Assembly: GCA_026129095.1 (NCBI GenBank)
Contig: JAHCIT010000001.1
Span: 434,245-498,244, forward strand
Direction: 5' to 3'
DNA: 64,000 nucleotides
Origin: Deltaproteobacteria bacterium
Lineage (GTDB): Bacteria; JAGRBM01; JAHCIT01
The translations under genes and the position numbers were made by a program. Below the pieces are notes generated by a model. It did no database searches. It had not been told where the DNA came from and was given only the letters and a program-made list of their open reading frames with translations. This document shows positions 1,284 through 63,585 of the stretch, piece by piece. Every line of letters begins with the position of its first letter. Position 1 is the first letter of the stretch.

Positions 1284-1321
1284 ACTTCCGATTGATCGGT
1301 CCCCCGAGGAGGGTCTGGCCG

Positions 1322-3418
1322 GTGCGCGACTTGTCGCATACCTGGCGGCCTGCTTCCCGATGGGGAGGCGGGCCGTATTCAGTGGTGGTTCTGGTGCTGT
1401 ATGGCTGCCTGGCCTCAGTCCCTTCCGCTGCGTACGCGCAGGACAGCGAGCCAGGTGCACTAGAACTCCCCTCCGTTGTCGTCGAACGTGAGCGCACCGT
1501 TGCCGAGAGTGAAAACGAGCGCGACTCGACCGGTGCCGTCACAACGATAGAGCGAAAAGAGCTCGACCGGCCCGGCGAGAACCTCGATCAGGTACTGGAC
1601 CGGCAGGCAGGAGTGAGCGCCGTCCGGCTCGGCGGGCTTGGCGACTTTTCCGCCGCTTCGATACGCGGGTCCAGCTTCGATCAGGTTCTGGTTTTTCTGG
1701 ATGGAATCCCACTAAATGCCGGGCTGGGCGGAGCGGTCGACCTTTCGGCCCTGCCTCTTTCGCATATCGAGCGCATGGAGATTTACCGCGGCTTCGCACC
1801 GGTCGAAGCCACCGCGAGTGCCCTTGGTGGCGCGGTATTTCTTTCCACCCGTGAACTGGAAAAGGAAACCCTGTCGGCCCGTGGCGGATACGGTTCGTTC
1901 AATACGATATCGGCGGGCCTCTTTGGCGGCGGGCTGATTGATTTCACCGGGAACGAAAAAACCAGAATGGCCGCGGGCCTCGATTTCATGCACTCAAGGG
2001 GAAATTTTTCCTTCCGGAACAACAACGGAACCGCCCTCGATCCATCGGACGATTTCGACCAGAAGTTCACAAACCGCGACTTCGACCGCGTGGGAACACT
2101 GTTTAAAGTTACACATGATTTCACTTCCCGTGCCCGCGGGACTTTTCTCCAGGACTTTTTCTATCGCGAAGGCGGACTTCAACGGGGTGGCGCCGTTATT
2201 ACCACCCGAAGCCGGATCCAACTGGTCCGTTCCATTACCGGAGCTGAGTTCAGGTTGCGTGACGCGATAATAAACGAGGATTCCCTCCGTCTTCAGGCCT
2301 ATTACACCTTTTCCCAGACGGAACTGGATGATCCGTTAGGAGAGTTCCGTGGATTCCCGCAGGATGAGATCAAAAAATCCTATTCGCCCGGGACATCCGT
2401 CACCTGGCGCGGTGGCCACGGGGCCATCCGGGGAACAACGCATTTCAGTTATCGGTTTGAGCGATATTCGCCAGCATACCGAATTCCCACTGTATTCACT
2501 GATGGAACGAGCGATCGCCAGTCTGTTGCCTGGGCGCTCGGTGGTGAACTGGAAATGCCAGGGGCGAAACTACTCGTTGCCCCCCAATACCGTTACGAGC
2601 ATGCCTGGAACAGTTTCCGGCCTGCTTCGACCTCAAGCCCCTTGAATCCCCAGAAAGTGCGCCAGTCCGGCGGGGGACACAGTGTTCGTGGAGGGTTGCT
2701 CTGGAAGCCTGTAGACGGGTTCAAGCTGCGCGGCAACGCAGGCCGCGCATTCCGTTTCCCATCGCTGTTTGAACTGTTTGGTGATTCGGCCCTGATTGCA
2801 GGAAACCCTCATCTCAAGCCCGAAAAAGGATTAAATCTGGATGCCGGCTTTGAGCTCGCCCGAAATCACGAACTGATAGCTGCAAAGGCAGGCATTGCCT
2901 TCTTTTATCAGGATGTGGACAACCTCATCCAGTTCGTCAGGACGCTTGTCCTGACCCGGCCGGAAAATGTGGACAGAGCGACTATCAAAGGTGTCGAGTC
3001 ATCACTTTCCGTCACCGCCCTTGAGGCATTCAGGCTTGATGCCACTCACACCTGGCTCACCAGCCGAATCCGGTCGAAGGTCGCGGCCCGCGATGGCCGT
3101 AAAATCCCGTTTCGGCCGCCGAACCAGTGGCTTCTTAGGGGAGCGGCATTCCGTGAACGGCTATTCAGCTGGATGACTCGGGCCGAGTTATGGACCGAAA
3201 TGGAGTTCACATCCAGCCATTTCGTCGATGGAAACAATATGGTTTCGGTCCCTGAGCGGCGAATACTCGGTGCCGGACTTGAACTGAAAATGCTGGACGA
3301 CCGGCTCGAACTGGCTTTTGACGGCCGGAACTTGACGAACGAACAGGTGATGGATGTCGTGGGTTTTCCCTTGCCCGGCCGGACGTTCTTCGGCCGTCTG
3401 GGATGGAAATTCCTGTAG
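1322..3418 (+). CDS. btuB: TonB-dependent receptor, probable cobalamin transporter (BtuB-like)
   Basis: Signal peptide, TonB box (LPSVVV), plug SIRGS..QVLVFLDGIP, FRFPSLFELF, GNPHLKPEKG, C-terminal PGRTFFGRLGWKF; riboswitch upstream; GTG start chosen after GAGGAG. Confidence 0.85.
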   Translation: MRDLSHTWRPASRWGGGPYSVVVLVLYGCLASVPSAAYAQDSEPGALELPSVVVERERTVAESENERDSTGAVTTIERKELDRPGENLDQVLDRQAGVSAVRLGGLGDFSAASIRGSSFDQVLVFLDGIPLNAGLGGAVDLSALPLSHIERMEIYRGFAPVEATASALGGAVFLSTRELEKETLSARGGYGSFNTISAGLFGGGLIDFTGNEKTRMAAGLDFMHSRGNFSFRNNNGTALDPSDDFDQKFTNRDFDRVGTLFKVTHDFTSRARGTFLQDFFYREGGLQRGGAVITTRSRIQLVRSITGAEFRLRDAIINEDSLRLQAYYTFSQTELDDPLGEFRGFPQDEIKKSYSPGTSVTWRGGHGAIRGTTHFSYRFERYSPAYRIPTVFTDGTSDRQSVAWALGGELEMPGAKLLVAPQYRYEHAWNSFRPASTSSPLNPQKVRQSGGGHSVRGGLLWKPVDGFKLRGNAGRAFRFPSLFELFGDSALIAGNPHLKPEKGLNLDAGFELARNHELIAAKAGIAFFYQDVDNLIQFVRTLVLTRPENVDRATIKGVESSLSVTALEAFRLDATHTWLTSRIRSKVAARDGRKIPFRPPNQWLLRGAAFRERLFSWMTRAELWTEMEFTSSHFVDGNNMVSVPERRILGAGLELKMLDDRLELAFDGRNLTNEQVMDVVGFPLPGRTFFGRLGWKFL

Positions 3419-3462
3419 CCAAAGAGAAGTGCATTGAGCGTTACAAACAAAAGGGGAGACCA

Positions 3463-4770
3463 ATGAAACACGTTAAACAGGCCATGTTATTCCATCTTTT
3501 TATTTCACTGGCAGCCTGCGAAGGCGATACTGCCCCGGGCACTCCTTCCGTGACGCTGGAACCCGGGTCTTACATGGCGGTCGTGACGACTGATTACAGC
3601 GTGTCCGCTGTCGGTGTATTGAACCGGGCAAATGGCGAACTTGTCAGTGAAGCAGTCCTGAGCTCTTCAACTAATTCGCCGGAAATTACCTTGCCGCTTA
3701 GCGGCGATGTTTCGTTGCCCAGTGATCCACCGCCTCCTGGCATTCTGTTTGTCATTGACCGGGGAGGAAGCAACAATAACATCAATGTGCTCGAAACCAC
3801 ACACATGACTGTCCTGGCGCAGATTCCCGTCGGAACCAGCACATTAGGTCCCTGGTATGCCAATCCGCACGATACGCTTCTCGTGAATGATTCCCGGCTG
3901 TATGTCACCCGGTATCAGGCCAATCCGAGTCCCTCGGCGGGTGCCGTCGACATGGATGAAGGCGATGATATCGTCATTGTAGATACAACTACACTCCAGA
4001 TCGTCAAGCAGATCCGGTTCAACTCCATTCTTGACCCCTGGTCTGGCGAACGGGCCAATCCGGACCGGATAGTTCGGGCAGGCAACCATGTCGTGTCTAC
4101 CCTTGGGCATTTTACCAATGCCAGCTTTAGCGCCTCAGGCAATGGACTTGTGGCGGTCATTGACACAGCAACAGAAGCACTGGTCGACGCTGATCCCGTG
4201 TCCGAAGGTACACAACTTCTGGAAATTACCGAGTTCAAGAACTGCGGCCCAATCCAGTACCTGTTCGATGAACCCGCCATCTATGTTGCCTGTTCCGGAC
4301 TGTTTGCTGACGGGCGGGATACTCAAATCGGGCGGTCGGGGGTTGTCAGGATTGATCTCACACCGCTTCCAGACAACGCCGCTGCGTATACCGTGGTTCT
4401 TGAAGGAGAAAACGAAGAAATCGGACAACCGGTCTCCAACCTGCTCGTTGTAGATGCAGAGACCGCATTCATCCTGACCTATGGCAATTTCTTTGGTCCT
4501 TTCGAATCGGACCAGCTCATCCGGTTCAATCCAAATGAACCAGAATTGGCGCCCGAGCTGGTATTCTCTGCCAGCGGCCCTTTCCAACTCGGCAGCCTTT
4601 CCTATGATGCCAGCACTCAGATCCTCTATGTAACTGATACGCCATTCGGCGGCGATCCGCTGATTCGCAGGTTTCAGCTCGGAATAGAAATCACCGAACT
4701 AGAGGGTATCAACCCTTCACCTGGCAACGGCCTCGCCCCAACGGCTCTGGGGCAGTTTGAGGTGGAATAA
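3463..4770 (+). CDS. Acidic beta-propeller lipoprotein (YncE/BtuG-like)
   Basis: AAGGGGAG RBS, lipobox LAAC, propeller-like motifs (NPHD..LYVTRY, IYVACSG); follows btuB. Confidence 0.7.
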   Translation: MKHVKQAMLFHLFISLAACEGDTAPGTPSVTLEPGSYMAVVTTDYSVSAVGVLNRANGELVSEAVLSSSTNSPEITLPLSGDVSLPSDPPPPGILFVIDRGGSNNNINVLETTHMTVLAQIPVGTSTLGPWYANPHDTLLVNDSRLYVTRYQANPSPSAGAVDMDEGDDIVIVDTTTLQIVKQIRFNSILDPWSGERANPDRIVRAGNHVVSTLGHFTNASFSASGNGLVAVIDTATEALVDADPVSEGTQLLEITEFKNCGPIQYLFDEPAIYVACSGLFADGRDTQIGRSGVVRIDLTPLPDNAAAYTVVLEGENEEIGQPVSNLLVVDAETAFILTYGNFFGPFESDQLIRFNPNEPELAPELVFSASGPFQLGSLSYDASTQILYVTDTPFGGDPLIRRFQLGIEITELEGINPSPGNGLAPTALGQFEVE

Positions 4771-5115
4771 CTACGTCAATTCCCGGTAACCGGGCGTCCG
4801 GTAAGCATCATAAGCCCGCTTGAAAAAGTCACGCGCCTCTTCACGCGTGACTTTTTCAGCCAGTTTGGGTTTACCCAGCATGAGCAGATAAACATGGGTA
4901 TCGTCGTTGGTGGTTCCAAATCCACCGTAAAATTCGAACTGGCCGATCATGAAATCGAACCAGAGTATCCGGAAAACAGACCGGAGAAACCAGTGTGTCG
5001 GCAGTCTGGCTTCCCGCCCGAGTCCACGGATCGTCACGGTAACGCCATCGGAACTGAACGTGAAACTGCCCAATTTCATTTCAGGATAGACCTGGTGTGC
5101 AGCGACCGAAGTCAT
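4771..5115 (-). CDS. Hypothetical protein, translationally coupled to upstream cupin dioxygenase-like gene
   Basis: ATGA overlap at 5112-5115; 114 aa. Confidence 0.6.
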   Translation of the reverse strand: MTSVAAHQVYPEMKLGSFTFSSDGVTVTIRGLGREARLPTHWFLRSVFRILWFDFMIGQFEFYGGFGTTNDDTHVYLLMLGKPKLAEKVTREEARDFFKRAYDAYRTPGYRELT

Positions 5116-6194
5116 CCATTCACCACCTTATGGAGCGGAAATCCACCTACCACTTCGGCACGGACACCTGCATTAGGCTCTCCGGCAACCGACTTTCGCA
5201 TCCACAAAAGAGCCGCATGGTTTTCCGGTTCTGGAATCACAAACCGGAAGCTAATGCCAGCAGGAACCCGGATTACATCCGCTTCGCCCATCTGCGAACA
5301 GGCGACTCTTTTGCCGGCGGCATTGAAAAACTCCACCTTCGGCCTGCCGAAATAGGCGATGAGATAAGAATGCGTGTCGCTTTCAAACGTGTTGCCAGTA
5401 GTGCCATCGGTAACGAAAAAATCGAGCGTTGCCGTTCCAACACGGGCGACTGCCTCGGGATTTTCCATCTCGCGGTCCGACTCTATTGACATACCGATGA
5501 GGCTCCGGGCCCCGATCCGCCCTTCGGTACGGCTGGGAATATCGTGATGGATCTTGATTTCGCCAACCTTCACCTTCGCAAACTGTGGCAACCGGTTACC
5601 GGACCATTCTTTCATGCTCACGGATTTCGTGGGTGCAAGCGTTTCGTTGTAGTCCACTTGCCCGGCCGAACAGAAAACCACGGCGAACAGCTTGCGCCGT
5701 ATTTCGTCAGGCGGGATGAAAATTTTTTCGGGCTCCTTTAGCTTGCCCGGCCAGTGGGACATTCCCACCGGATGTACAGTCATGGCTCCGTTGGTGGCCT
5801 TCACGTAGCCCAGCTGCTCCGCGGTATCAGTGTCGGTATATACCGTACGACCCGGAAAAGTATCGACCATCTCGTCACCGGTCGGGAACAGTATGTTGTA
5901 CTCATCGCCCCAGTTGCTGTGGCCGAAATAAAGCGGCTCGCTCGCCGTACTCATTTCAATCACCGTATTATCAATACGCATGACTATTTCGAGCACATGC
6001 TCCAGATGATTGGCTGCACCGGCAAACGCCCTGAGATTGAAATGGCCGAACTTGTCCTTGTGCGGGTCTTCAGGCGTACGAAACGGTTCGATAGGGCCTG
6101 ATTGCACATCCGGTTCAAGCGCCAGAGATCCCGGCTCGATCTTCCAGTGCTTGCAGGAAACATGATAGTTGCCCACGGACAAATCACTCCTCAA
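5112..6194 (-). CDS. Homogentisate 1,2-dioxygenase-like bicupin with swapped domain order
   Basis: GHSNWGDE (HxxxxxE) and HPVGMSHWP (HxxxxxH) metal-ligand spacing as in HmgA; second cupin motif GEADVIRVPAGISFRF near the C-terminus. Confidence 0.65.
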   Translation of the reverse strand: MRSDLSVGNYHVSCKHWKIEPGSLALEPDVQSGPIEPFRTPEDPHKDKFGHFNLRAFAGAANHLEHVLEIVMRIDNTVIEMSTASEPLYFGHSNWGDEYNILFPTGDEMVDTFPGRTVYTDTDTAEQLGYVKATNGAMTVHPVGMSHWPGKLKEPEKIFIPPDEIRRKLFAVVFCSAGQVDYNETLAPTKSVSMKEWSGNRLPQFAKVKVGEIKIHHDIPSRTEGRIGARSLIGMSIESDREMENPEAVARVGTATLDFFVTDGTTGNTFESDTHSYLIAYFGRPKVEFFNAAGKRVACSQMGEADVIRVPAGISFRFVIPEPENHAALLWMRKSVAGEPNAGVRAEVVGGFPLHKVVNG

Positions 6195-6302
6195 ATAGAG
6201 ATTCCCTGCACTGACATCAATGTCAGCCAGACCGGTCCTACTTAGACAGATTGAAGCCTTTAGCCAAGAGGAGCCACCGGACTGGATTGGGATACCTTAC
6301 TG

Positions 6303-6719
6303 TTACCGTCTCTTCGCCCGGACTTTCACTTCCATCCCGGGAGCAGCAGGATCTTCTTTGGCCTTGAAGTCCACCTCCGCCGTCAGTGTAACAGTAACAT
6401 TTTGCAATGCGGCCTGAAGCAGTTCCACGGGATCACGGTCCTTGAGAAGCGTACTGGCCACTTCGCGGGCAATGGCATTGAACAGTTCTTCCTTGGTCTG
6501 CTTCGACTGGTTGATGAAATAGCTGACTGCATCTCCTGGCACCTTGATATCAGCCAACGCCCGCCGCACCGAATCTTCTGTCATGAAGACCGCGCCAAGC
6601 GACGTGTATATCGCCTTTTTGACGCTGTCAGGGACAATACCGTCCAAACGGTCACCCAGCCGGCGGCGGCCTTCCCGCTCGTCCCTCTGGCCTGAATCCG
6701 AATCGTGTTCCGGCATCAT
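6303..6719 (-). CDS. Conserved hypothetical helical protein (phasin-like)
   Basis: KKAIYTSLGAVFMTED...KEELFNAIAREV pattern; GAGG RBS. Confidence 0.6.
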   Translation of the reverse strand: MMPEHDSDSGQRDEREGRRRLGDRLDGIVPDSVKKAIYTSLGAVFMTEDSVRRALADIKVPGDAVSYFINQSKQTKEELFNAIAREVASTLLKDRDPVELLQAALQNVTVTLTAEVDFKAKEDPAAPGMEVKVRAKRR

Positions 6720-6780
6720 TCACCTCGCTTCCGTACTCCAAAGAGTAGACCATTTCAGCCAAACTCCCTAACATGGGCCA

Positions 6781-7794
6781 GTGAAACCCTTGCTAGCCCG
6801 TGCCACCTTCACCGCCCTTTTTGCCGTCGCTTTGGCTTTCAGCCCACTTCAATCCCAAATGGTACCTCAGCCAGACGCCGAAGCGAAGGCTAAGGGGGAG
6901 CAGATATTCCGCCGGGGACAGAGGTGCTATGAGGAACTGAACTACAGTTGCGCGGAAACCAGCTTCCGCGAGGCGTTAAACTATTCCCGTGATCCACAAT
7001 ATCACGTTTTTCTGGCCTATACTTACGCGGCCACCGACCGCCAGCGGCTGGCCGTGGACGAATTCAAAAAGTCTCTGGAACTGAACCCTGACTTCACGGT
7101 AGACAGTGAAACCCAGTCGCCCAAAATTGTCCGGGCCTGGGAGCTCGCCCGCTCTGAAATCGAATCAGAAAAGGAAGCAGCCCGGCAAAGCGTCATCCGG
7201 AAAGGAACGGCTTTTCTGGATGAACTCTTTCGAGAAACGATTTCTACTGTCGCCAAGCCGTTTCTTCCGGAAAAACCCCAGGGGCTCATGTGGGGTGACG
7301 TGCCCCTGGCACGCAAAAGCCGGTATACCATCGCGGCCGGTTTCAACGTGCCGGTTGATGACCGGTATGCTGGCCGGAATGATGCCTTTGAGCCGGATAT
7401 CGCACTTATGGGAGCCTATACCTATCACCCTGAAATTAATCATTTCGCTTTTGGCACGCGGGTGATTTATTCCCGCAACAAGCAACGGGACGCGACGGGG
7501 CCCGTATCGCTCGATATCGTCAGCGCCTCGGGGTTTCTGGAGCTGCATCATCCTGTTGAAGTATTCCTGCTTTTCGGCAGAGCAGAGGCAGGTGCTGTCT
7601 TTTCTGGAATCGACAATATACGGGACAAAACCGGCCTGCTGGCCGGGGGATCAGCGGGTGTTGCAGCCTTGGTCACCGACCGCGTATCGCTGGAAATTTC
7701 CACCACTTTTCAGGCCATGTTCGGAGCCGGTGTTCCCGGCCGGAATCCGAGTTATCGGGCACCATTCTTCTTTGGCCTGAACTACCTGTACTGA
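6781..7794 (+). CDS. Secreted TPR protein with C-terminal outer-membrane beta-barrel
   Basis: Signal peptide, TPR motifs (FKKSLELNPDF), alternating beta-strands ending FFGLNYLY. Confidence 0.65.
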   Translation: MKPLLARATFTALFAVALAFSPLQSQMVPQPDAEAKAKGEQIFRRGQRCYEELNYSCAETSFREALNYSRDPQYHVFLAYTYAATDRQRLAVDEFKKSLELNPDFTVDSETQSPKIVRAWELARSEIESEKEAARQSVIRKGTAFLDELFRETISTVAKPFLPEKPQGLMWGDVPLARKSRYTIAAGFNVPVDDRYAGRNDAFEPDIALMGAYTYHPEINHFAFGTRVIYSRNKQRDATGPVSLDIVSASGFLELHHPVEVFLLFGRAEAGAVFSGIDNIRDKTGLLAGGSAGVAALVTDRVSLEISTTFQAMFGAGVPGRNPSYRAPFFFGLNYLY

Positions 7795-7882: not shown

Positions 7883-8905
7883 ATGCGTCAGGTCTGGATA
7901 ACCAAAGCCGGAGAACCGGAAGTATTGAAAGTTAGAGAGGCTACCGATCCTGAACCCAAGGCCGGGGAAATCCGAATCCGAGTAGAAGCGGCTGGCATCA
8001 ATTTCGCCGATATCATGGGAAGAATGGGAATGTACCCGGACCTTCCGGGCATTCCCATCGTTGTTGGCTATGAGGTCGCCGGCAAGGTGGACATGGCAGG
8101 AGAAGGCGTGGACAGGGGATGGATCGGCAAGAATGTGTTCGCCATGACCCGTTTCGGTGGCTATTCGGACATGGTATGCGTTCCGGAGCGCCAGGTATTT
8201 GCTCGACCCGCTGCCATGAGCGCCCTAGAGGGAGCTGCCTTTCCGGTTGTCTATTTCACTGCATGGCAGCTCATTGTTGTAATGGGCGCCCTCAAGAAGG
8301 GCGAAACCATCCTGATTCATTCAGCTGGTGGAGGTGTTGGCATCGCCGCCATACAGATCGCCCGCCACATCGGGGCGACCATTATCGGCACGGCCTCCAA
8401 GGGAAAACATGACTATCTGAAAACCATCGGCGTGCATCACTGCATCGACTACCGGACCGAGGACTTTGAAAAGCGTGTCAGGGAAATCACAAATGGCCGT
8501 GGAGTTGAGCTTATTATCGATGCCGTTGGTGGTGATTCGTTCAAGAAGGGATTCCGCATACTTGCCCCCACCGGACGACTCGGTATGTTCGGAATGTCAG
8601 AAGCTGCCACGGGAAAGACCCGGAGCATTATCGACCTGCTCAAGATGGTCGCAGGCATGCCGTGGCTCCAGATCAATCCAGTAACTTTGATGAATGAGAA
8701 CAAGGCGGCTTTCGGTGTCAACATGGGACATATGTGGGGCGAGGTCGAGCGGCTCAGGAACTGGGGCGAGGAAATGCTTGTCCTTTATGAGCGCGGAATC
8801 CTGAAACCGGTTGTAGACAAGACTTTTAGTTTTGCTGATGCACCGAAAGCGCACCATTACATCCAGGACCGGAAAAATACGGGCAAAGTGCTTCTGGTGC
8901 CCTGA
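7883..8905 (+). CDS. NADPH:quinone oxidoreductase, MDR family (VAT-1-like)
   Basis: GINFADIMGRMG, GYEVAG, HSAGGGVG, RKNTGKVLL. Confidence 0.9.
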   Translation: MRQVWITKAGEPEVLKVREATDPEPKAGEIRIRVEAAGINFADIMGRMGMYPDLPGIPIVVGYEVAGKVDMAGEGVDRGWIGKNVFAMTRFGGYSDMVCVPERQVFARPAAMSALEGAAFPVVYFTAWQLIVVMGALKKGETILIHSAGGGVGIAAIQIARHIGATIIGTASKGKHDYLKTIGVHHCIDYRTEDFEKRVREITNGRGVELIIDAVGGDSFKKGFRILAPTGRLGMFGMSEAATGKTRSIIDLLKMVAGMPWLQINPVTLMNENKAAFGVNMGHMWGEVERLRNWGEEMLVLYERGILKPVVDKTFSFADAPKAHHYIQDRKNTGKVLLVP

Positions 8906-12728: not shown

Positions 12729-13595
12729 TCATGGCAACGTAAAGACGCTCGCCTCAACCTTCACTTTATGGGCGAGCTTGACCGCACTCTTGTCGGATGC
12801 GGTTCCCAGCCCTGATGGCACTTCTACAGCCGGTAGCTTCACGCTCGGTTCAATTTCAACAGGCCCTTCCTGACCTTCGGCAAGCTGGAGAGCCCAACAG
12901 CCATCGTGCGTGGAATCCATTGCCAGCGACTGCGAAAAGAACGAATAGCGTGGACCGTGGCGGTCCAGCAGGGAGGCGTGGCCTTCCTTCCAGTGGCCAT
13001 GCCGGGCGGTTTCACCAGTGGCGGGATTAAAGATGTACTGGCAGCCCTGTGCATCCTCGGGATCAAGATCGGCAGCCTTGGCCTGGGTGATATCCTCGGA
13101 AGTGACTATAAACTCCCTCCGGATCCACCGGTGACGCGGCGTGCGACGAGGAGCAAGCTTGGTCCCTTCTACCAGCACCTGCCCAACACGCAGATCAAGA
13201 TCGTAACAGCGGCCAGCCGTCAGCAGCCACGATTCCGATGTCCAGGTCTTATCCGGGTGGGCAATGTTGACGCCGAAGATCACCTTCGTTTCCTGGTGAA
13301 AAGTATAAAATGCGGCCCGGAGCTCATCCTGAAACAGCTGAAAGTCGCCGGACCTGAGTCCGACAAATCCGCCGGGGAACAGGAAATATTCCGGCATGAA
13401 GCCAAGCCGGCGGGCCATGCTCAGCACAATGGCCGACAGAATGAATGTCTGTCCGCGAACGGCCCCCTGGCTTGCGGGGGTAGATGCGACAGTCTGCCGC
13501 TCACCAAAGGCACCATCCGAAAGATCGAGGCCTTGGGCCATACCACGGGAAATCGTGGTAGTTTCAGCGCGACCGGTAACGCAGCAAATGTTCAT
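12729..13595 (-). CDS. Hypothetical protein, possibly degenerate nitrilase fold
   Basis: 288-aa ORF with AGAGGG RBS; YFLFPGGF and VIFGV resemble CN-hydrolase strands. Confidence 0.5.
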   Translation of the reverse strand: MNICCVTGRAETTTISRGMAQGLDLSDGAFGERQTVASTPASQGAVRGQTFILSAIVLSMARRLGFMPEYFLFPGGFVGLRSGDFQLFQDELRAAFYTFHQETKVIFGVNIAHPDKTWTSESWLLTAGRCYDLDLRVGQVLVEGTKLAPRRTPRHRWIRREFIVTSEDITQAKAADLDPEDAQGCQYIFNPATGETARHGHWKEGHASLLDRHGPRYSFFSQSLAMDSTHDGCWALQLAEGQEGPVEIEPSVKLPAVEVPSGLGTASDKSAVKLAHKVKVEASVFTLP

Positions 13596-24983: not shown

Positions 24984-26798
24984 GTGAAAGAAACCAAGGA
25001 CAAACCCGAAGCGGGACTTTCCGTCCGGACCGTCGGCCATTTCGCTCACGACCGGTGGTTGATGGCAGTGTTATCTCTTGTCTACTGGGGTCTCGTGCTC
25101 ACTGTCTGGGGCAGGACTGGAGATGTCGCCACAGATGCATTCAATGATCTTACCACCGTATTCCGGTGGGAATCGGGCCAGAAGCTTTATGAGGAAATCC
25201 AGTGGCTACATGGTCCCATGCCACCCATTCTGGTGCGCACCGTTCGTCTCATATGGGGCCGGACTGTAGAGAGCTATCTTCTCCTGTGTGCTCTATTCGC
25301 CTGGGCCGAGTGGATATTCGCCTGGCATCTTATCCGGCGCCATGCCGGGCCAACTGCATCGGCAATGACTGTTCTGATAATCTGGGCATTTTTCACCTTC
25401 GAACCGGATGTGTTCGCACGGCTTCTGCCGGTAAACTTCTCATCGCTGGCGGCATCAGTATTCGTTCTGGCCCTGCTGAATCTGCTCGATTCAGACTGGA
25501 TCCGCCAACATCGCACTGGCCCGACAATGGCGGCGGCCGCTGTCGCCCTGATACTTCTCACAAAAGTCGAGTTCGGGCTTGCGGCATGGGCCGCCTTGCT
25601 TGCAGCGGTCTCCTTGCGTCCAGAACCCGGAAGGGTGGCAGGTATGGCCGTGGTATTACTATTCCCAGCAGCGGCTTACCTTCTCACCTGCGCGATATTC
25701 CCCTCTTTCTGGGAAATCGCCAGCCCCGCAAAAGTAGCAGGCAACGAATTTGGCCGACTCTATCTTCAGTATGGCGGCTCAATCACGAATCTTAAGACCG
25801 CGCTCCATTTCCTGATGATCGTGGCCGGGTCAACGGTAGTGTTTTTTGGCTTTACGGGATCGGTACTAGCACTTGCAGCAGGCCACTGGAAACGGTCGGC
25901 TGCTATCGTCGCGATCGCAGCAGCAATTATCACTCTCCTGTTTTCCATCGACTGGCTGGGTATTGGTCTTACAACGAGCGAGCGTCTCCGCTGGCATCTC
26001 AGTTTGGCTTTCCTCATCCCCGGCCTGCTCTGGGGCATTATCCAGACGGCACGGGATTCCGGGCACCGTCATGAGCTGCCCCTGATATTATGTGCTCTAC
26101 TCTTGCTCTCACGGACACCGAACCAGCTACTTCCCGCCCGGTACGGGGCTTTCTATCTCCTGCCGGCACTTGTGCTGGCAATTTCCTGGCTTGCAGCACT
26201 AACAAAGAGGCTGGCCAGCCGGAACACAATCCGGGCGTCAGGGATAGTGCTGTTCGCCCTGATGATACCCGCCGGATTTCATGCTGCCACCAGCATTGAA
26301 CGCTTCAGGGCCAAGCGTTACCCGCTACCGGAATCTGCGGGCGCCCTCCGCACCTATGATTTCCGGACCATGGTGATTGGGCCAGCCATCGCGTATCTCC
26401 GGGGAAACCTGAAAGCCGGCGAGAAGATTGCTGTCGTTCCCAACGAGCCGGTGCTTTACTATGCCACCGGCGCACTACCCGCTTGGCCGGACCACAACTA
26501 TATTGGCCACCTAGTACGCGGTGATGACGAACAGGCTCTGGCTGAACTGGCGTTTTCAGAATCGAGATTCATCGTCATGTCAAACCGGCCGTATGCCGAG
26601 TTCGATAATGGGCGTGCGGGTTCCGGTTTTGCGAACTACCTTGGAGCAGAACTCCCACACCGTGCCCGGAAGGTGGCGGAGTTTTCTACGGCACCGGGCG
26701 CGAAAGATGCCCCACAAGGCAAGGTGGAAAATTTCTACCGGATTCGAATATGGGAGGTCCTGCCGACAAGACCTGCTGAAGCCAGCGAACGCCCCTAG
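24984..26798 (+). CDS. Polytopic membrane protein, GT-C glycosyltransferase-like
   Basis: Many TM helices, G.KLY.EI.W.HGP motif, TKVEFG, soluble C-terminal domain. Confidence 0.6.
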   Translation: MKETKDKPEAGLSVRTVGHFAHDRWLMAVLSLVYWGLVLTVWGRTGDVATDAFNDLTTVFRWESGQKLYEEIQWLHGPMPPILVRTVRLIWGRTVESYLLLCALFAWAEWIFAWHLIRRHAGPTASAMTVLIIWAFFTFEPDVFARLLPVNFSSLAASVFVLALLNLLDSDWIRQHRTGPTMAAAAVALILLTKVEFGLAAWAALLAAVSLRPEPGRVAGMAVVLLFPAAAYLLTCAIFPSFWEIASPAKVAGNEFGRLYLQYGGSITNLKTALHFLMIVAGSTVVFFGFTGSVLALAAGHWKRSAAIVAIAAAIITLLFSIDWLGIGLTTSERLRWHLSLAFLIPGLLWGIIQTARDSGHRHELPLILCALLLLSRTPNQLLPARYGAFYLLPALVLAISWLAALTKRLASRNTIRASGIVLFALMIPAGFHAATSIERFRAKRYPLPESAGALRTYDFRTMVIGPAIAYLRGNLKAGEKIAVVPNEPVLYYATGALPAWPDHNYIGHLVRGDDEQALAELAFSESRFIVMSNRPYAEFDNGRAGSGFANYLGAELPHRARKVAEFSTAPGAKDAPQGKVENFYRIRIWEVLPTRPAEASERP

Positions 26799-32132: not shown

Positions 32133-32309
32133 ACCTTCTTGAATCCCCATACACCAGGCCGACCCATTGGGAAAGACGGGCAACCCGGCAGGCTTACTTA
32201 TGTATAACCTGCTCCTGTTGCCCGCCGGAAACTGGTTGCGTATAGTGGTTTGAGCCTCAATTCCCACAAGGCAGATCGCCGTTTCCACTGCGGCAGGTGC
32301 GGGTTTTCC

Positions 32310-35300
32310 ATGTCAGACGAGGACAACAAGCGGCAAAGTGGAACCAGTGGCGGGGATTCGTTTTCTGCACCCCCTTCTGAGGATTCCTGGGACCTGGACG
32401 AGTTTGCCTCCGACCGGTCAGCACCACCCAATCCCGGCGATATCACCCTGAGTCCGGTGACGCTCGAGCCCACATACAACATCGGGGCAACATCCAAGAT
32501 ACCGGACAACGACCCCGACGTTTGGGATCGAAACCTGGTTACACGGCATCCATTGATGCAGGCCACCGGGAAAAGCGTGCCCCCGCCAAAAGCGGCGGAG
32601 ACTAAGACTATGGGTGGAGACGATTCTGGCGGCTGGGATCTGGATGAATTCAGCTCCAGCAAGCCGGTCGCTTCACAACCGGTGGCAACAGACGACGAGC
32701 CGATAGCAATGACCGCCGAGAATCCGCCGGAAGAAACCGGCTGGGATCTGAATGAGTTCAGTTCCAGGCCAGCAGATCCCGCTCAATCATCTCCGATATC
32801 CCTATCCGGGCCATTGCCAACGCATAATGACGACGAACCTATTGCACTTGAGGCTGAGCCCCCACCCGATACAGTCACTGATGATAGCTGGAGTCTGGAC
32901 GAATTCAGTTCGCCGGCTCCTGTTGCACCGTTCCGTGAAATCTCCACCGTTTCGACTGGGCCAAGCGATGAACCCGTAGCGATGGCTGCCAGTATTCTCC
33001 CTGGGCTTTCGGTGGAATCGCAGCCTGTGAGCATGCCAGCAGATAACAAAGGCGAGACTGACTGGGGCATGGAAGAATTCGAGGCGCCGGAAAATTCATC
33101 TAGTGAAGTTCAATCTGTTTCGTCCGGTGACACTCTGGACCGAATTCTTGAGGTGGAAGAAAAAGACGCCTGGCTGGACACCAGCGCTGCAGCCGAAAGC
33201 TGGAGCGTCCAGCCAATGCGGAACGTGGGGCAAAGCCTTTCCACGGGACAAGACCCCGAAATTGTCACTTCCACTTCCGCGCAATTGCATCCCACAACCG
33301 GCAATGACCATATCGATGTGGTGCTGGAACATCTGGCCAGCGAGCCGCCTTCAGCAAACCGCGATCTCAGGATCGCTTCCGTATATATTGCCGCCTGCGG
33401 CCGTTCCGATAACTTCGATTCCCGCTGGCTTACTGAAGCACGGCGGCTTATAGGTGACCGAAACGATCCGGCGGCGGCGGCACTTCGTGCGCGAATCGCC
33501 GTGATCGAAGAGTCCTCATCAGATGAGCTGGAGCGGCTTGGATCTGGTGTAGGCGGCGGACCAGCAAGCCGGGCACCATGGATCGCCGAATCCCTGAGAC
33601 GCGCCATTGCCGAAAATGCCGATGAGCGTGCCATCCGGCTTGCCTGGGCACTGGCTGAAATCGACCCGGGGCACCCCCTCGCACGGTGGGTTCAGGCCCG
33701 GCACCTGCCGAAGGACCGGCTAGCGGAAACCCGAGACGAAGCTCTTCAGACTGTTGGATCTCCTGCAGCTGCAATCGAACGTGCCCGTCTCCTTGCGGTC
33801 GATCTTGCTGCTGGGAACAGGGCCGGAAATGACCGGATTTCACAGATACTGTCGGCCCTCGGGACAATCCCGACAGATCATCCATTGGCCTCCGTAGCCA
33901 GAGAACTCGGCACACGAATCAACGAGCTCCAGCTCGACTGGAACGCGTGGACTGCTTCCATGAGCGAATATGCCGCCACGCTGCAAGGAGCAGAACAAGC
34001 GGCTGTTTTGTACCGCTTGGCCCGTATTCTTCACGAAGAGCTGGGCGATCTGGATGGTGCTCGTCAGATATACGAAAAATTGCTGGCAGCCGATACTGAA
34101 AATCTCGTGCTTCTCAAGCTTCTGGAGGACGTTGAGCGCAGGAGTGGGCGACCGGATATCCTGCTGACCGTCTTCGATGCGCAGTACCGGGTATTCAAGG
34201 ATGAACAGCTCCGCGCCATCACAGCCGTGAAAGCCGGTCAAGTCGCCGAAGATCAACTCAGAAATCCACAGGCAGCCATCGACTGGTACAGCCGCGCTCT
34301 GGAAGCTGATCCCCGGAATCCTTTTGCACTAAGTTCTATCGGGCGTCTGTTCGCCAAGGCGGGCGAGTGGGAAAAACTCGCTCAGGTATATGAGTTTGAA
34401 GCCGAAGGCGCCACCGACAAACAGCAGAAAGTCGATTTCATGCTGAAGCATGCTGAACTGCTGGCGGAACGTCTGAACCAGCGCGAAATGGCGATAAATG
34501 TACTGCGCTCGGCGCTTCTGATAGATGACAGCAATCTCAATATATACCGGGAACTGGGTCGGCAGCTTAGCGCCAGTCAGCAGTGGGAAGACCTGATCCG
34601 TCTTTATCAGGCTGAAGTAACTTTGACCCGGGACAAGAGCCGGCTGGTGGCTATTTACATGTCGCTTGGTGAACTGTGGCAGAAGGATTTTCAGCCCAGC
34701 GAACCGGTAGACAAGTTCGCCCAGGCTGTCGAATCATACTATCACGCACTTGAAGTAGAACCCGACTATACACCAGCCCTCCGGACGCTGGGACGCCTTT
34801 TTTATGCCACTGAAAACTGGGATCTGCTGATCCGGGTGTATGAAAGGGAAATGGAGTTGCTCGAATCCCCGCGGGCAAAGGCAGCCATCCGGGTCAAGAT
34901 TGCCGAAATTGCCGAAGACCGAAAAAAGGATCTCTCGCTGGCCATCGACAATTTGAGACAGGCTCTGGAGCTCGATCCAGCAAACCAGATGGTGATCAAT
35001 CACCTGTCACGGCTTTCGCCCACACAGAAGAACTGGGATGACCTTGTAGAAGTCTACATTCGCGAGGCGCAGATGACCCGTGACCGCCGCTACGCTGCCG
35101 CCCTGCACCAGCTCATTGGTGAAATCTGGCGCGACCGGTTCCAGTTCATCAAAAAATCAGCTGACAACTTCGAAAAGGCTATCGAACTCGATCCTTCACT
35201 CGAATCAGCCCGCCAGAATCTCGAACGTACCCGGTTCGAGCAACGCACTCCCGCCGAACAGATTGAAGACATTCAGGCATATCTCGCATCGGGTACCCCG

Positions 35301-38300
35301 CAATCACCTTCCGAAGTAGAGCGGTTTGTTTCACTGCTAGCGACCAGTCCTGAACTCATCACCGATTCCCGGTTGGCGCTGGTTCCGGACCGCTTCTGCG
35401 GCCGGGCACTGATTGCACTGGAGCCAGTCCTTAATGCCGTCAAGCTAAGACTGCTGGCCGAGCGGGCGGCTTCAGCCGATGTGGAAGAATCCGCTTATGC
35501 CCGACGGCTTCTCATTGAACTGCCAGGTACCGATGAAATCGCTGAGACTGCCTATATAGAAACGTTATTGCGAGGCGGTGGGCTTTCTATGGCGGACATG
35601 GAGCGTATTTATGCCCGCCTAAGCTCCCGGAAGCCTTCGCTCGGTCATTGGGAACTGAAAGTCGCGCTTCACGAGCGGCTCGGCCGTGGCATGGATGGAC
35701 TGGATGACCTGATCTGGGAAGGAATTGGATTGGGCGGCACCAGTTCCCGGCTCCTCCCACTCCTCGCGGCCCGCGTAAAATCCGGAGATTCCGGAACAGG
35801 CATTTTGGAGTCTCTTCACCATGTGGCCCTGGAAGCCGGTAATACCGAACTCGGACTTCTTGCCATCGAGAAGCTGCTGGCAAGCGGAGTGGCCGGCCCA
35901 AAGCGTGAAAAACTCCTCACAGACCGGGCCCAACTCCTTGCTTCTCTGCCAGACCGCAAGGAAGCGGCCCTCGATGCCGCACGGGAAGTGTTCAAGCTCA
36001 ATCCTGACAGCGAAATCGTAGTATCGCTTATCGGGAGACTCTCGGCAGAGCTTGGGCGCAGCGATGATGCCCGCCTGTTTGCCGAGCGCAGGCTCGCAAA
36101 AGCGACGTCACCTGTCGAAAAGGCCCTTGCTACGGTGGACCTCGCCCGAATCAGCATTGATCTGGAAAAAAATCAGGAAGCCGGAAAACGCATTCTGGAT
36201 GAAGCTCTCTCACTCGACCCTGCCTGTATTAGTGCACACCAGATGAAGGTGTCACTGCTTGAGCAGCAGGGGAATTCCGCCGAACTGGCGTCAGCCCTCG
36301 AAGCGATGGAGCCACAACTTCAACGAAGCGAGCAAATCGCCGTACGTGAACGCTTGGCAACGATTTACGGCGAGGAACTGCGTGAACCCGAACGCCAGCT
36401 ACTTCACCTGGAAGCACTGGTTGGTCTGGAACCACAAATTTCGGCTCGACACGCGGCACTGGCCAGGTTCCATCGGACACGGAACGACTGGCCAGAGCTG
36501 TTTCGCTCCCTCATGTTACAAGCACGGTGTCCTGACACTGAAGCCTCAGCTGCCGAACGGCTTGTATCCGACGCGGCACGGATCGCCATTGATCGCCAGC
36601 TTACCGAAGCCGATCTTGGGGAAGTGTTTTCCTGGGCTTCCTCACAACTCGATTCGGCCACCGATAAGGCCGCTATGCTTACTGCCACCATTGATACCGC
36701 CCGTGCTCTCGACAGGCCGGAAACACTGGCACCACTTCTCGAAAAACGTGCAGCGATGATCGCTGACGAGAAAAAGCAGGTGGCTGACCTTATTGAGGCC
36801 GCCAAACTGTACGAAACCGTGCTCGGCCACGCGGACAAGGCCCAACAACTTTACGCCACTGCAGCCGAACTGGACGACACTCACCCCGCCGCTCTCATGG
36901 CTCAGGCAGAGAAACTGTTCCGGGAAGAAGACTATGGCAAGGCTCTTCCAATCATTCGCAAGGCCTTTGGCGCTGGCATCCAGAAGTCAGAGCCGCGAAT
37001 TCGCGCCGATGCCAATTACATGATGGGGGTCTGCCTGCAGGCAATGGGTGATGCCGAGCAGGCCCGCGGAGCATTTCTGCGTGTCATCGAAGACCAGCCG
37101 ACTCACCGGGATGCGCTGATGTCACTGGCCGAGTATGACGGCCAGAAGGGCGATTGGGCCGCCTTCACACAGCGACTGGAGCAGGTTCTCAAGAATGCCA
37201 CCGAAGAAACTCCCCAGTTCCGTAGCGGAATCCTGAAACGGATCGCCCATGCCCATGAAAACAGCGGCAAATCCGACGAAGCACTCCGGTCCTGGGAAGC
37301 TGTGGTCCGCGAAGATCCCACTGCCAGCGACGCACTTGAGGCCGTCGTGCGACTGGCCATGGCGCGAGGACTGGTCGACCGGGCCAATACCGCACTGGAG
37401 ATTCTGGCCCATCAGTCCGAATCCCTGATGGACAATACCAAGGCCGCCAGATACCGCCTGGAGATCGCCCGAAACCTGGGTACTCATGCAGGGGACTCCG
37501 CCAAGGCACTAGTCGAATACCGGAAAGTTCTGGATCTGGATAGCAATACACCTGAGGCATTATTCAAAGTTGCAGAAGCGGATTTCTCAGCTGGTAAAAC
37601 AGAAGAAGCTGAGGAACTACTCAAACGATTCATTAAGGTAGGCCGAGCCGACACCAAATTAATGCCACAAGCCAATGCGCTACTCGGCAAGATCGCTATT
37701 GCCAAGGGTGATTCCACTGCCGCCCAAACCTATCTGGAGCAGGCCCAGCAGCAGGGAACAGAAGCGTCCGCAACGGCCGAAGCGATGGTTACCCTGCATG
37801 AAAAGAACGGTGAATGGGAAAAGGCCGAGCAGACACTCGAAAAGCTCGCCGACTCGATGCGCAAGGATAACCCTCGTGAAGCGGTTCCGTTTCTGATCCG
37901 GCGGGCCCGGATACTCAAGGCATACCTTAATCGCCGGGATGACGCCATTATGGAAATCCGGCGGGCAATCAGGCTGGATCCGCAAAATCTGGAGCTGCAT
38001 GAGATGCTCGCCGGTATTTTCCGGGAAAATGTGGCCACCATCGGTGAGGCGATCAAGGCCTATCAGGCAATCCTTCACATTGATCCATTCCATCTCCATA
38101 CCTACGACACACTGGCTACAATTTATTCGACCGACTTCGACAAGCGCTTCTGTGCTGGCCAGGCACTTATTGCACTCACCGGTCCCACGACAGACATCGC
38201 TGACTGGGTGGCCGCCCAAAAAAGAAACCAGCCGAATGCCCCCAAAGGGAAGTTCAATCCTGCACAAGCCGGCAGACAGTTCTGGCACCCTGCCTGCCAG

Positions 38301-60159: not shown

Positions 60160-60359
60160 CAGCTTTTCTTACCGCCGCTCTCCGGATCCCGGCCCGCCAC
60201 TTTCGCGGACCTCCTGCTCTCGCGGGCCGAGCGCGTGGCCGCCTCTAGCGCCTTGCGGATACGGCCCGGCTCGATGACCGGCCGGGCAGCTGCCCTCGCG
60301 GGCCGCTTCCGGGGCTTCAGGCCCAGTTCGGCGAACTGCTTCAAATCAATCGGTTTCAT
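60159..60359 (-). CDS. 66-aa basic hypothetical protein
   Basis: MKPIDLKQFAELGLKPRKRP...; GGAGG RBS, ATGA overlap with upstream gene. Confidence 0.55.
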   Translation of the reverse strand: MKPIDLKQFAELGLKPRKRPARAAARPVIEPGRIRKALEAATRSARESRRSAKVAGRDPESGGKKS

Positions 60360-61660
60360 GGTTCCTCCGGTGGGGGAGCCACATACGGCCCCTTCTTCAC
60401 GATCATCAGGTTGCGCCGCCTGACGATCCACGCCTCGTCGTCGGTCTTCTCGCACATGACGGCCAGCACGTCGCCGGCGGCGACCATAACGCCGGCGGCG
60501 GTGAACACGTTGGTGGCCGGCTCGCCGTCAACAGCCAGCCCGGAGACCGTCTTGTGTTCGGTCGCTGTCATCAGATCATCGATGGTGGCCACGGTGTAGG
60601 TCAGTCCACCCGCCGCCGCCTCCGGTGCCGTCTCGTGCGCCGAGAACAGCACCTCGTATTCGCCCGCCTCCTCCTCGCTCGCGCCGAGGCCGAACAGGTA
60701 GGCCACCGGGGCGGCAGCCTCATGACTCAGCATCGCCGCGCCGGAGTCCTCGTAGGAATACGCCTGCGTCCCGCCGCCGAACGGCACCACGACCGGAAAC
60801 CCTTCGCTGTCGGTGCCGCTGATCCGGCCGACCGGCTCGGTCTGCCCCGGCCGGAAGGCGTAGCCGTGCATGCCACTGCCGTCGAGATCGGAAGGGAATC
60901 CGCCCGCCGAGGCGAACACCGTGGCGAGCCACGGCTGGTTCGCAATGACCAGCATCGGGTCGCCTTCGGCGTCCGTCACCAGCGACTCGAACACGTTCTG
61001 GAGCGGGGTCAGCATGTCGATGGCAATCTTCCTGAGCGTGCCGCCGATGGGCCACGCCGAAAGTTTCTTGCCCGTTCCAGTCGTTGGGTCACCTGGCACT
61101 GAAGCACCGCCAAGGTTGCCCAGCGCCATCGCCGATTCGTCTCCGACGCCGAGGACCACCAGCCAGTCTGCATCCGTGTCGTCGTCGGAATTGAAGACGA
61201 CCAGCATCTGCTCGAGGTCAGCAAGGCTCGCCCCCTCGCCCGGCGTGATCGTGTAGTTACCCTCGCTCTCGGCGATGTCCCAGACGCCAGGCAGTTCCAC
61301 CGGGGTGGTTTCGAGGCTCAAAGGCTCCTGCGGGGAGCGGCTGGCGAACAGCCGTGGGTCCGCGCCGCCTTCGCCGTCGGCCCCGTCTTCTCCATCTTCG
61401 CCATCCGCACCAACCTCGCCTGGCGCGCCGTCCACCGACAGCAGCAGCCAGTGTTCGGTATACTCGGCTGGCGCGACCGGCAGCGGATTGCCCACGTTCC
61501 CGTTCGTCCGGCTCAGGAACAGCGCGCCACGGCCGTCCCATGTGCCACGGACGCCGTCGGCCCGGTAGTAGGTCTCGTTCTCGTCGTAGGTCTCGAGCGG
61601 GTTCAGGTTGATGGCCAGCGGCAGCAGGGCGCGGGCCTCTTCACTCAGTTTCCAGGTCAT
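60356..61660 (-). CDS. Acidic phage protein with short collagen-like segment (possible accessory fibre/structural protein)
   Basis: GAPGEVGADGEDGEDGADGEGG; N-terminal Y...Y...G..F...N.G...W motif; GAAAGG RBS. Confidence 0.65.
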   Translation of the reverse strand: MTWKLSEEARALLPLAINLNPLETYDENETYYRADGVRGTWDGRGALFLSRTNGNVGNPLPVAPAEYTEHWLLLSVDGAPGEVGADGEDGEDGADGEGGADPRLFASRSPQEPLSLETTPVELPGVWDIAESEGNYTITPGEGASLADLEQMLVVFNSDDDTDADWLVVLGVGDESAMALGNLGGASVPGDPTTGTGKKLSAWPIGGTLRKIAIDMLTPLQNVFESLVTDAEGDPMLVIANQPWLATVFASAGGFPSDLDGSGMHGYAFRPGQTEPVGRISGTDSEGFPVVVPFGGGTQAYSYEDSGAAMLSHEAAAPVAYLFGLGASEEEAGEYEVLFSAHETAPEAAAGGLTYTVATIDDLMTATEHKTVSGLAVDGEPATNVFTAAGVMVAAGDVLAVMCEKTDDEAWIVRRRNLMIVKKGPYVAPPPEEP

Positions 61661-61696
61661 GTTCAAACGTCCTTTCACCGCCGTTTCAGGCGGCCT

Positions 61697-63583: not shown

Positions 63584-63585
63584 CG

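Follow-up and report, generated by a model that had tools for sequence, protein, structure and literature searches.

Overlapping genes of a deltaproteobacterium probably encode a rare two-subunit metal enzyme with hydroquinone-dioxygenase modules in a different order

What kind of enzyme is encoded by two overlapping genes that lie at positions 4771 to 6194, on the minus strand, of a 64,000-nucleotide stretch of a Deltaproteobacteria bacterium genome (contig JAHCIT010000001.1; the whole stretch is called the window below)? A sequence-only reading of this locus had taken the larger product for a relative of homogentisate dioxygenase (HmgA, or HGD) with its catalytic and non-catalytic domains swapped, translationally coupled to a 114-residue partner. 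Our analysis leads elsewhere, in that the two genes probably encode a rare two-subunit metal enzyme in which the modules of hydroquinone dioxygenases occur in a different order. More specifically, and with roughly even confidence, we regard the pair as an obligate heteromeric cupin metalloenzyme related, by deep divergence and a rearrangement of modules, to the type II hydroquinone 1,2-dioxygenases PnpCD, HapCD and HqdAB. In PnpCD, PnpC is a cupin without metal, and PnpD consists of an N-terminal Whirly-like domain followed by the catalytic cupin. To our knowledge, the type II hydroquinone dioxygenases have so far been one tightly conserved family.

The gene pair and its small subunit

The features of the two genes that the argument needs are as follows.

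5112 to 6176, minus strand: large-subunit gene, 354 residues, bicupin (open reading frame list; start placed from homologue N-termini and sequence)
6187 to 6190, minus strand: GGAG, Shine-Dalgarno-like, 10 nucleotides upstream of GTG 6176 (read from the sequence)
5112 to 5115, minus strand: ATGA stop/start overlap of the large and small genes (AAT GGA TGA / ATG ACT)
4771 to 5115, minus strand: small-subunit gene, 114 residues, Whirly-like fold (four strands and a helix, twice)
4921 to 4947, minus strand: loop I57-G65 of the small subunit (..E-F-Y-G-G), with invariant Y63 and G65, predicted to dock on the H86/H141 region of the large subunit

The open frame of the large gene runs on to a TTG at 6194 (5112 to 6194, minus strand; 360 residues from that codon). 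We chose GTG 6176 as the start because the homologues begin six residues later than a protein read from the TTG and because GGAG lies upstream; TTG 6194 is thus probably not the start in use, and the protein probably has 354 residues. The strings on which the sequence-only reading had drawn (PF...FNLRAF...HLEH, PLYFGHSNWGDE, HPVGMSHWP and FESDTHSYLI..FG...GEADVIRVPAGISFRF) all occur in the translation of 5112 to 6194, and the ATGA coupling that it had described was confirmed as the overlap at 5112-5115. In a word-seeded search, homologues of the large protein were 66-97% identical to it (five matches among 2254 candidates) and those of the small protein 73-97% (five matches among seven candidates). 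In each of the six loci examined, the small gene follows the large one directly, and in distant relatives the two are fused. The features of the locus thus go beyond what chance would produce. The 4-nucleotide stop/start overlap recurs in the two most distant two-gene loci, L005 and L006.

The small protein provides the firmest link of the analysis. Its AlphaFold2 model, built from a 15-row alignment, has a mean predicted local distance difference test (pLDDT) score of 90.3. Searched with Foldseek, the model gave 13 matches at E<=1e-3; the ten shown were all large-subunit chains of hydroquinone dioxygenases, the others were further chains of the same listed entries, and the next match stood at E 0.09. 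Across these chains the template modelling (TM) score ranged from 0.72 to 0.84 at 22-25% identity, with 5m26_F the best (E 1.2e-4, TM 0.84, 22% identity) and the PnpD chain 4zxa_W at TM 0.72 and 25% identity. By VIA-align, residues 6-114 superposed on residues 25-146 of 4zxa_W over 109 residues (Z 10.5, root-mean-square deviation (rmsd) 2.0, 23% identity), and the runners-up were Whirly (Z 8.2), then MRP and PUR proteins down to Z 6.7.

Sequence comparison hints at the same domain. The small protein weakly matched Pfam PF18191, the model for the N-terminal domain of large subunits of hydroquinone 1,2-dioxygenase, at E 0.0035, and by phmmer it matched residues 32-98 of chain 5m21_B at E 0.057. 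When the Protein Data Bank (PDB) was searched with a mixed profile of the small protein and its fused relatives, the 5m21_B match weakened to E 1.7 because the profile took up cupin columns. A six-frame search of the source genome with PF18191 gave nothing at E<=1e-3. On the strength of the models in particular, we consider the small protein to be most plausibly homologous to the N-terminal domain of PnpD and HqdB, the first of three module correspondences.

Cupin barrels and candidate metal site of the large protein

The large protein divides into the following parts.

5652 to 6059, minus strand: N-terminal cupin, residues ~40-175, putative catalytic barrel (strand pattern, conservation)
5901 to 5921, minus strand: H86-S-N88-W-G-D91-E92, candidate metal motif 1 (H-x-N-x3-E)
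5754 to 5789, minus strand: G130-x5-P136-x-G138-x2-H141, cupin motif 2, with H141 as candidate ligand
5172 to 5708, minus strand: C-terminal cupin with an N-terminal extension, residues 157-335, PnpC-like (VIA-align match to 4zxa_A)

Its cupin nature emerges from structure prediction. Neither Pfam nor NCBIfam, each at E<=1, returned a cupin match (Cupin_1 and Cupin_2 included), the sole Pfam return being a chance match to P116, and a single-sequence search of the PDB found nothing. The AlphaFold2 model, built from a 21-row alignment (pLDDT 86.3; predicted TM score 0.88), shows a bicupin fold, and its DSSP assignment contains one strand pattern that occurs twice, about 178 residues apart. The Foldseek matches of the model, with E near 1e-10 and TM 0.35-0.45, included quercetinase, oxalate decarboxylase and vicilins; VIA-align placed 3rns at the top (Z 15.6), followed by salicylate 1,2-dioxygenase (14.7), gentisate 1,2-dioxygenases (13.9 and 13.8) and quercetinase (13.4).

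The C-terminal half supplies the second module correspondence. It aligned with PnpC (4zxa_A) over 135 of 163 residues at Z 11.3 and rmsd 3.1, covering model residues 157-335, and PnpC was the best single-domain match to this half; generic single cupins reached at most Z 10.0 with at most 106 residues aligned. The positions equivalent to metal ligands are occupied by F264, S266, S270 and F311, and this cupin therefore has no metal site, in keeping with the earlier proposal that the C-terminal half is a non-catalytic cupin.

The N-terminal cupin is the best-conserved part of the family, and distant relatives match best over query residues ~46-180. Conservation was counted over 63 unique family sequences (65 collected), fragments without a column being left out of its count. 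Residues H86, N88, D91 and E92 are each unchanged in the 60 sequences that cover them; P136, W142 and P143 are present in 58/58, H141 in 56/58 and H135 in 55/59, and E59 and H60 in 56/56. In the model, H86 and S87 form a β-bridge, N88-D91 a turn, and a strand comprising residues 92-97 starts at E92. Motif 1 is thereby modelled in the placement of the canonical cupin C-D hairpin, and G130...H141 is modelled as a textbook motif 2.

The spacing of H86, N88 and E92 is that of H256, N258 and E262 in the PnpD chain 4zxa_W, where H303 completes the set. We take these four residues to be the iron ligands of PnpD; the ligand numbers do fall on H, N, E and H in the sequence of that chain. The second ligand position of the family is asparagine in 60/60 sequences, so the three-His site of the gentisate and salicylate bicupins is not found here. 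Among the ESM-Atlas neighbours of the large protein, PnpD clusters make up 19 of the 30 nearest (score 0.93, 146/256 features). Restricted to residues 35-180, the comparison again puts PnpD clusters in the first three named places, at 0.86-0.87, which lies under the 0.9 bar and counts as a lead only. Motif, topology and language-model neighbours together make the correspondence of this barrel to the catalytic cupin, the third of the three, a lead.

Predicted complex, fused relatives and rival readings

Modelled together, the two proteins gave an interaction prediction score from aligned errors (ipSAE) of 0.84, 0.83 and 0.80 in three runs (median 0.83); each of three controls scored 0.00. Of 80 solved complexes, 58 attain the mark set for this score, as do 2 of 110 mismatched pairs; these counts are only approximate here because our own alignments went into the modelling. 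The runs had at least 65% of contacts in common, and the pLDDT of the partner was at least 86. On the large subunit, the confident interface comprises residues 55-62, 79-80, 83-89, 114, 116-119, 140, 142, 146, 149-150, 152, 154 and 160; on the small subunit, it comprises 38-53 (in part), 57-65, 80-84 and 112-114. It holds 12 of the 31 conserved positions of the large subunit, including E59, H60, H86, N88 and R160, and five of the seven invariant non-methionine positions of the small subunit (R45, R49, Y63, G65 and E112). The lowest-error contacts join residues 57-65 of the small subunit with 84-86, 114, 119, 140 and 142 of the large one. Since small-subunit residue 61 touches both 84-86 and 140 and 142, the model would place H86 and H141 close together beside the partner. 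The complex model thus supports binding of the small to the large protein.

The family is small. An exhaustive search of 1,835,955,588 proteins returned 29 representatives (50% identity clusters) at E<=1e-3, three of them at E<=1e-30, and the family lacks a Pfam or NCBIfam model as well as a solved structure. Of 41 sampled genomes, six carry the pair: the source genome itself, all three others of the same family and both of a sister family, with none among the remaining 35. A scan of species-representative genomes found 47 loci, three from close and 44 from distant relatives; most of the distant ones are named as Myxococcota lineages or 'delta proteobacterium', and one as Acidobacteriota. A simple gene caller recovered the target gene in 29 of the 47. 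Of the distant genes, 24 have an intact 3' end, and in every one of these the small-protein domain forms the C-terminus of the same chain; two more run off their contigs. The small-protein profile matched the C-termini of 14 of 33 larger relatives (13-32 bits).

Further domains join these fused chains. Context was taken from 16 distant loci with two neighbours on each side. Eight of the 16 carry an N-terminal FMN_red/flavodoxin domain, which NCBIfam names best as NAD(P)H:quinone oxidoreductase/WrbA, at E 4.7e-23 and with 82 bits where the cut-off is 141. A gene of ~425 codons for an α/β hydrolase lies directly upstream in eight of the 16 (L013, L022, L028, L032, L042, L050, L051 and L053), and the hydrolase is apparently fused in three more (L033, L046 and L017; 816-972 residues), where weak matches fall in the N-terminal extension. 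The hydrolase assignment itself comes from weak matches to Hydrolase_4, Abhydrolase_1 and DLH, and we found no solved structure related to this partner by sequence. The source genome encodes two homologues of the Myxococcota hydrolase (50% and 41% identity; E 1e-142 and 9e-84), at L056 1456-2799 (plus strand) and at L057, on other contigs and unlinked to the pair.

Canonical enzymes are far more numerous, with 3400 matches for PnpD against 29 clusters for the large-protein family, and the PnpD-type large subunits found are 76-92% identical to one another. Among 401 genomes, one exceeded the PF18191 cut-off: it is an unrelated genome with a genuine pnpCD pair (L007), whose PnpD matches 5m21_B at E 1e-139 and 4zxa_W at E 1e-133 and which shows the canonical gene order. 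In another unrelated genome (G181, locus L008), a stretch that matches PF18191 weakly and under its cut-off (E 1.7e-4, 22 bits) contains two in-frame stops and may be a decayed or very divergent PnpD-N-like domain.

Taken as a relative of PnpCD, the pair would work as follows. The catalytic cupin and the PnpC-like cupin would be joined in one 354-residue chain, and the PnpD-N-like domain would be a separate chain of 114 residues made by coupled translation. Fe(II) would be held by H86, N88, E92 and H141 in the N-terminal barrel, over which the E-x-Y-G-G loop and the arginines of the small subunit would close, completing the pocket. With O2, the enzyme would then cleave the ring of a hydroquinone-type (para-diol) substrate. 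In the fused relatives, the WrbA-like quinone reductase would feed the enzyme by converting quinone to hydroquinone, and the α/β hydrolase would act just before or after the dioxygenase-like enzyme; together they would form a quinone/hydroquinone disposal line and not a classic catabolic island. In the known p-nitrophenol pathway, the two-component hydroquinone dioxygenase comes immediately after a benzoquinone reductase (PMC3324391), and a review describes the two-subunit hydroquinone dioxygenases as encoded by adjacent genes, with iron on the β subunit (PMC3727088).

A more ambitious version is that an operon-level circular permutation took place, in which PnpC-cupin / N-domain-catalytic cupin was rotated to catalytic cupin-PnpC-cupin / N-domain, with a composite active site closed by the Whirly-like subunit, and in which the Myxococcota units are hard-wired to a WrbA-type reductase and an α/β hydrolase so as to dispose of an endogenous or environmental redox-active quinone and not of an intermediate of pollutant breakdown. 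We think this version rather doubtful. The module order could have rotated by, for example, tandem duplication, fusion and trimming. If it were true, the fused units would be a single 'reduce-cleave-hydrolyse' machine, serving a housekeeping quinone-turnover pathway that has not yet been described.

How securely, then, can the pair be tied to the hydroquinone dioxygenases? A number of observations pull in the other direction. We infer the metal, its ligands, the substrate and the reaction from sequence and models. The PF18191 match of the small protein scores 17.4 bits, under the 25-bit cut-off. For the large protein, the family profile found no relative among PDB sequences, its only return being a chance dUTPase match at E 1.9, and hhalign comparison of the family with a homologue or alignment of PnpD or PnpC revealed no significant cupin homology; the match to PnpD reached a non-significant E of 0.04 (probability 1.3%), and when limited to the domain it reached P 0.0038 (probability 8.8%). 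The best hhalign alignment sets H-G-N-D-R-V-E of PnpD on T99-G100-D101-E-M-V-D105 and makes the invariant SEPLYFGHSNWG loop an insertion. For the large model, higher overall scores went to other bicupin dioxygenases, and the PnpD chain is not among its best 50 VIA-align matches, a result that is not evidence of difference. Memory of the solved intrachain arrangement of PnpD may be a partial cause of the good score of the complex. Finally, the pair is set among housekeeping genes, and neither 4-hydroxymuconic-semialdehyde dehydrogenase nor maleylacetate reductase was found beside it in the window or in the 16 distant loci. As to the register, hhalign does align H141 with the last His of PnpD ...MPADIRH, and the residues of its alternative register are less conserved (T99 in 49/61, D101 in 53/60). 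We favour H86, N88, E92 and H141 as candidate metal ligands because they are invariant and because the model has the canonical four strands between motifs 1 and 2.

The same observations could suit a bicupin of different chemistry, one that shares the PnpD-N-like accessory domain and acts on a substrate other than hydroquinone, whether as a gentisate/salicylate-type dioxygenase, a quercetinase/pirin-type dioxygenase or a non-oxygenase cupin (isomerase, decarboxylase or hydrolase). The top whole-model matches (3rns, salicylate and gentisate dioxygenases and quercetinase, and by Foldseek oxalate decarboxylase and quercetinase) agree with it, as do a homology of the cupins to PnpC and PnpD that is not statistically established and a neighbourhood free of hydroquinone-pathway genes. 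Such an enzyme would, however, have to carry an accessory domain whose relatives at E<=1e-3 are all large subunits of hydroquinone dioxygenases, and a metal motif, H-x-N-x3-E, that is the one of PnpD and not the three-His set of gentisate and salicylate dioxygenases. The absence of a Cupin_1 or Cupin_2 match in Pfam tells against it too, and a quinol substrate is suggested because of the fusions to WrbA-like quinone reductases. We hold this alternative to be possible although on the unlikely side. A sensor or regulatory pair, with a ligand- or metal-sensing bicupin of ChrR or AraC type and a Whirly-like nucleic-acid-binding partner, is improbable: the ChrR anti-sigma cupin 3o14_B does match the large model at Z 12.8, the fold class of the small protein does include the single-strand nucleic-acid binders Whirly, PUR-alpha and MRP1/2 (Z 6.7-8.2), and the genes do lie outside any catabolic cluster, yet neither the pair nor its fusions contain a sigma factor or a DNA-binding domain, the fusion partners are enzymes (WrbA-like reductase and α/β hydrolase), the His, Asn and Glu at the cupin metal positions are strictly invariant, and the small protein finds its closest counterpart in an enzyme domain, clearly ahead of the Whirly proteins.

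The proposal of a circularly permuted HmgA relative with exchanged catalytic and non-catalytic domains drew on the H-x5-E and H-x5-H spacings of the large protein. These are present, but H-x5-E and G-x5-P-x-G-x2-H are generic cupin motifs and not specific to HmgA. No match to HgmA_N or HgmA_C appeared in Pfam at E<=1, nor any HgmA match in NCBIfam at E<=1, and a six-frame search of the whole 3.67-Mb genome with PF04209 gave no matches, the control being found in Caulobacter. Homogentisate dioxygenase 3zds_A does resemble the model in structure (Z 12.2, rmsd 3.7, 223 residues); the alignment, residues 31-330 on 84-399, is nevertheless collinear and ranks 15th. The putative metal-bearing barrel of the large protein lies in the opposite half from that of HGD, whose metal residues are in the C-terminal barrel, and this had seemed to speak for swapped domains. 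Gentisate and salicylate 1,2-dioxygenases, though, have their metal site in the N-terminal barrel, and given also the collinear alignment, no permutation relative to HGD is required. Both the C-terminal cupin and the partner subunit speak for PnpCD instead, and hppD, fahA and maiA are absent from among the neighbours of the pair, as the sequence-only reading had itself remarked. With no profile match, and a collinear Z of 12.2 below the 13.9-14.7 of the gentisate and salicylate dioxygenases, we rejected the homogentisate dioxygenase reading, which now seems very improbable. What endures of it is the idea of an uncharacterised two-gene cupin, probably an Fe(II) enzyme, with a coupled partner, which the adjacency, the fusions and the complex score (0.83 vs 0.00) sustain; kinship with HmgA and the circular permutation find no support, the modules being rearranged relative to PnpCD and not to HmgA.

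If the pair is indeed a module-rearranged relative of PnpCD, it would give a name to a protein family that at present has neither a Pfam or NCBIfam model nor a solved structure. The roles of the small subunit and of the N-terminal domain of the large subunit in type II enzymes have been unclear; in a passage of a 2013 review, the role of the α subunit of hydroquinone dioxygenase is called elusive (PMC3727088). Because a remote family would keep all three modules while redistributing them over its chains, all three would seem to be needed together, and the redistribution would amount to a natural experiment on what each module does. The Myxococcota triple fusions of hydrolase, quinone reductase and dioxygenase would predict the substrate class, and they hint at a compact cassette for quinone disposal that might serve bioremediation or biocatalysis.

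Neighbourhood, RNA-library cover and known systems

In the window, the pair has as neighbours a TonB-dependent receptor, a β-propeller protein, an unknown protein of 138 residues, a tetratricopeptide repeat (TPR) protein, a quinone-oxidoreductase-like medium-chain dehydrogenase/reductase (MDR) and MreB. In the closest relatives, the conserved order is NAD synthase, TonB-dependent receptor, propeller protein, the pair, the 138-residue gene, TPR protein, PIG3-type MDR, MreB, a cystathionine-type pyridoxal-phosphate enzyme and threonine synthase. Of this order, L005 of the sister family keeps only the TPR gene, the 138-residue gene and the pair, and L006 keeps just the pair. One neighbour stands close upstream on the same strand.

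6303 to 6719, minus strand: gene of 138 residues without a match in Pfam or NCBIfam, 108 nucleotides upstream of the large gene

Homologues of this gene (41-72% identity) occur upstream of the pair in L005, L009, L010 and L011 and not in L006. The gene may share a transcript with the pair, its membership of the unit being uncertain. In L009 (808-1961), about 1.15 kb separates it from the large gene, against 108 nucleotides in the window. In a promoter and terminator scan of 4500-7000, no signal exceeded shuffle expectation, and the large and small genes had no terminator between them.

RNA cover was taken from contigs of four RNA-seq libraries of four studies (X10, X13, X17 and X19) at 95% identity or more, and such cover is not proof of transcription. 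The large gene is covered by X10 at 5407-6178, in four pieces, and by X19 at 5450-5649 and 6138-6320; the small gene by X17 at 4673-4990 and X13 at 4615-4817; and the 138-residue gene by X10 and X13, with the X19 contig at 6138-6320 reaching 18 nucleotides into it. No RNA contig spans the 5112-5115 junction, and 4991-5406 is without cover in the four libraries.

Several other genes of the window deserve mention. The TonB-dependent receptor (1292-3418, plus strand) is overlapped by the 455-residue β-propeller-like gene (3403-4770, plus strand), whose product has a probable lipoprotein N-terminus; the two converge on the small gene with zero intergenic bases (4770/4771), an arrangement that is kept in L009 and L010. 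The MDR gene (7883-8905, plus strand) has PIG3-type NAD(P)H quinone oxidoreductase as its best name (264 bits vs a cut-off of 296.8); it is found 1.7 kb away from the pair, on the opposite strand, shows synteny in L010 and L011, and offers a weak second hint of quinones. Farther away, 32250-39083 (plus strand) holds a 2277-residue open reading frame that consists largely of TPR repeats (12 TPR-type Pfam families). Frames of 288-604 residues without a Pfam match lie at 12729-13595 (minus strand; E<=0.01) and, at E<=1e-5, at 24984-26798 (plus strand), 60356-61678 (minus strand) and 62402-63661 (minus strand).

How does the pair compare with known systems? The MhqR regulon of Bacillus subtilis, which comprises a quinone reductase, hydroquinone-type ring-cleavage dioxygenases and a carboxylesterase, confers resistance to methylhydroquinone and quinone. 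It unites the same three activities as the Myxococcota fusions and their neighbours, namely to reduce a quinone, cleave a quinol and hydrolyse; its dioxygenases are glyoxalase/extradiol enzymes unrelated to cupins, and the analogy is thus one of logic only. HGD (3ZDS) has a bicupin-like core and the generic cupin H-x5-E spacing in common with the large protein. It differs in having no partner subunit, and the large protein has its metal-type residues in the other barrel and no tyrosine-pathway context. Salicylate 1,2-dioxygenase (2PHD), gentisate 1,2-dioxygenase (3BU7, 2D40) and quercetinase (1GQG, 2H0V) are single-chain bicupins that align collinearly with the large protein at Z 12.8-14.7; their identity to it is 8-11%, and they have no separate Whirly-like subunit.

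PnpCD shares the most with the window pair. Both have a Whirly-like domain (the small subunit vs PnpD 25-146), a metal-free cupin and a cupin with H-x-N-x3-E...H; both are encoded by two adjacent, coupled genes, with the window pair predicted to be heteromeric; and a quinone reductase is linked to the relatives of the window pair and, according to a passage of PMC3324391, to the pnp/pdc clusters. The cupins of the window pair show no significant sequence similarity to PnpC or PnpD, and no downstream pathway genes accompany the pair. The principal difference is one of architecture: PnpCD is built as [cupin] + [N-domain-catalytic cupin] and the window pair as [catalytic cupin-cupin] + [N-domain], and the fused relatives, with catalytic cupin-cupin-N-domain in a single chain, likewise depart from the order of PnpCD.

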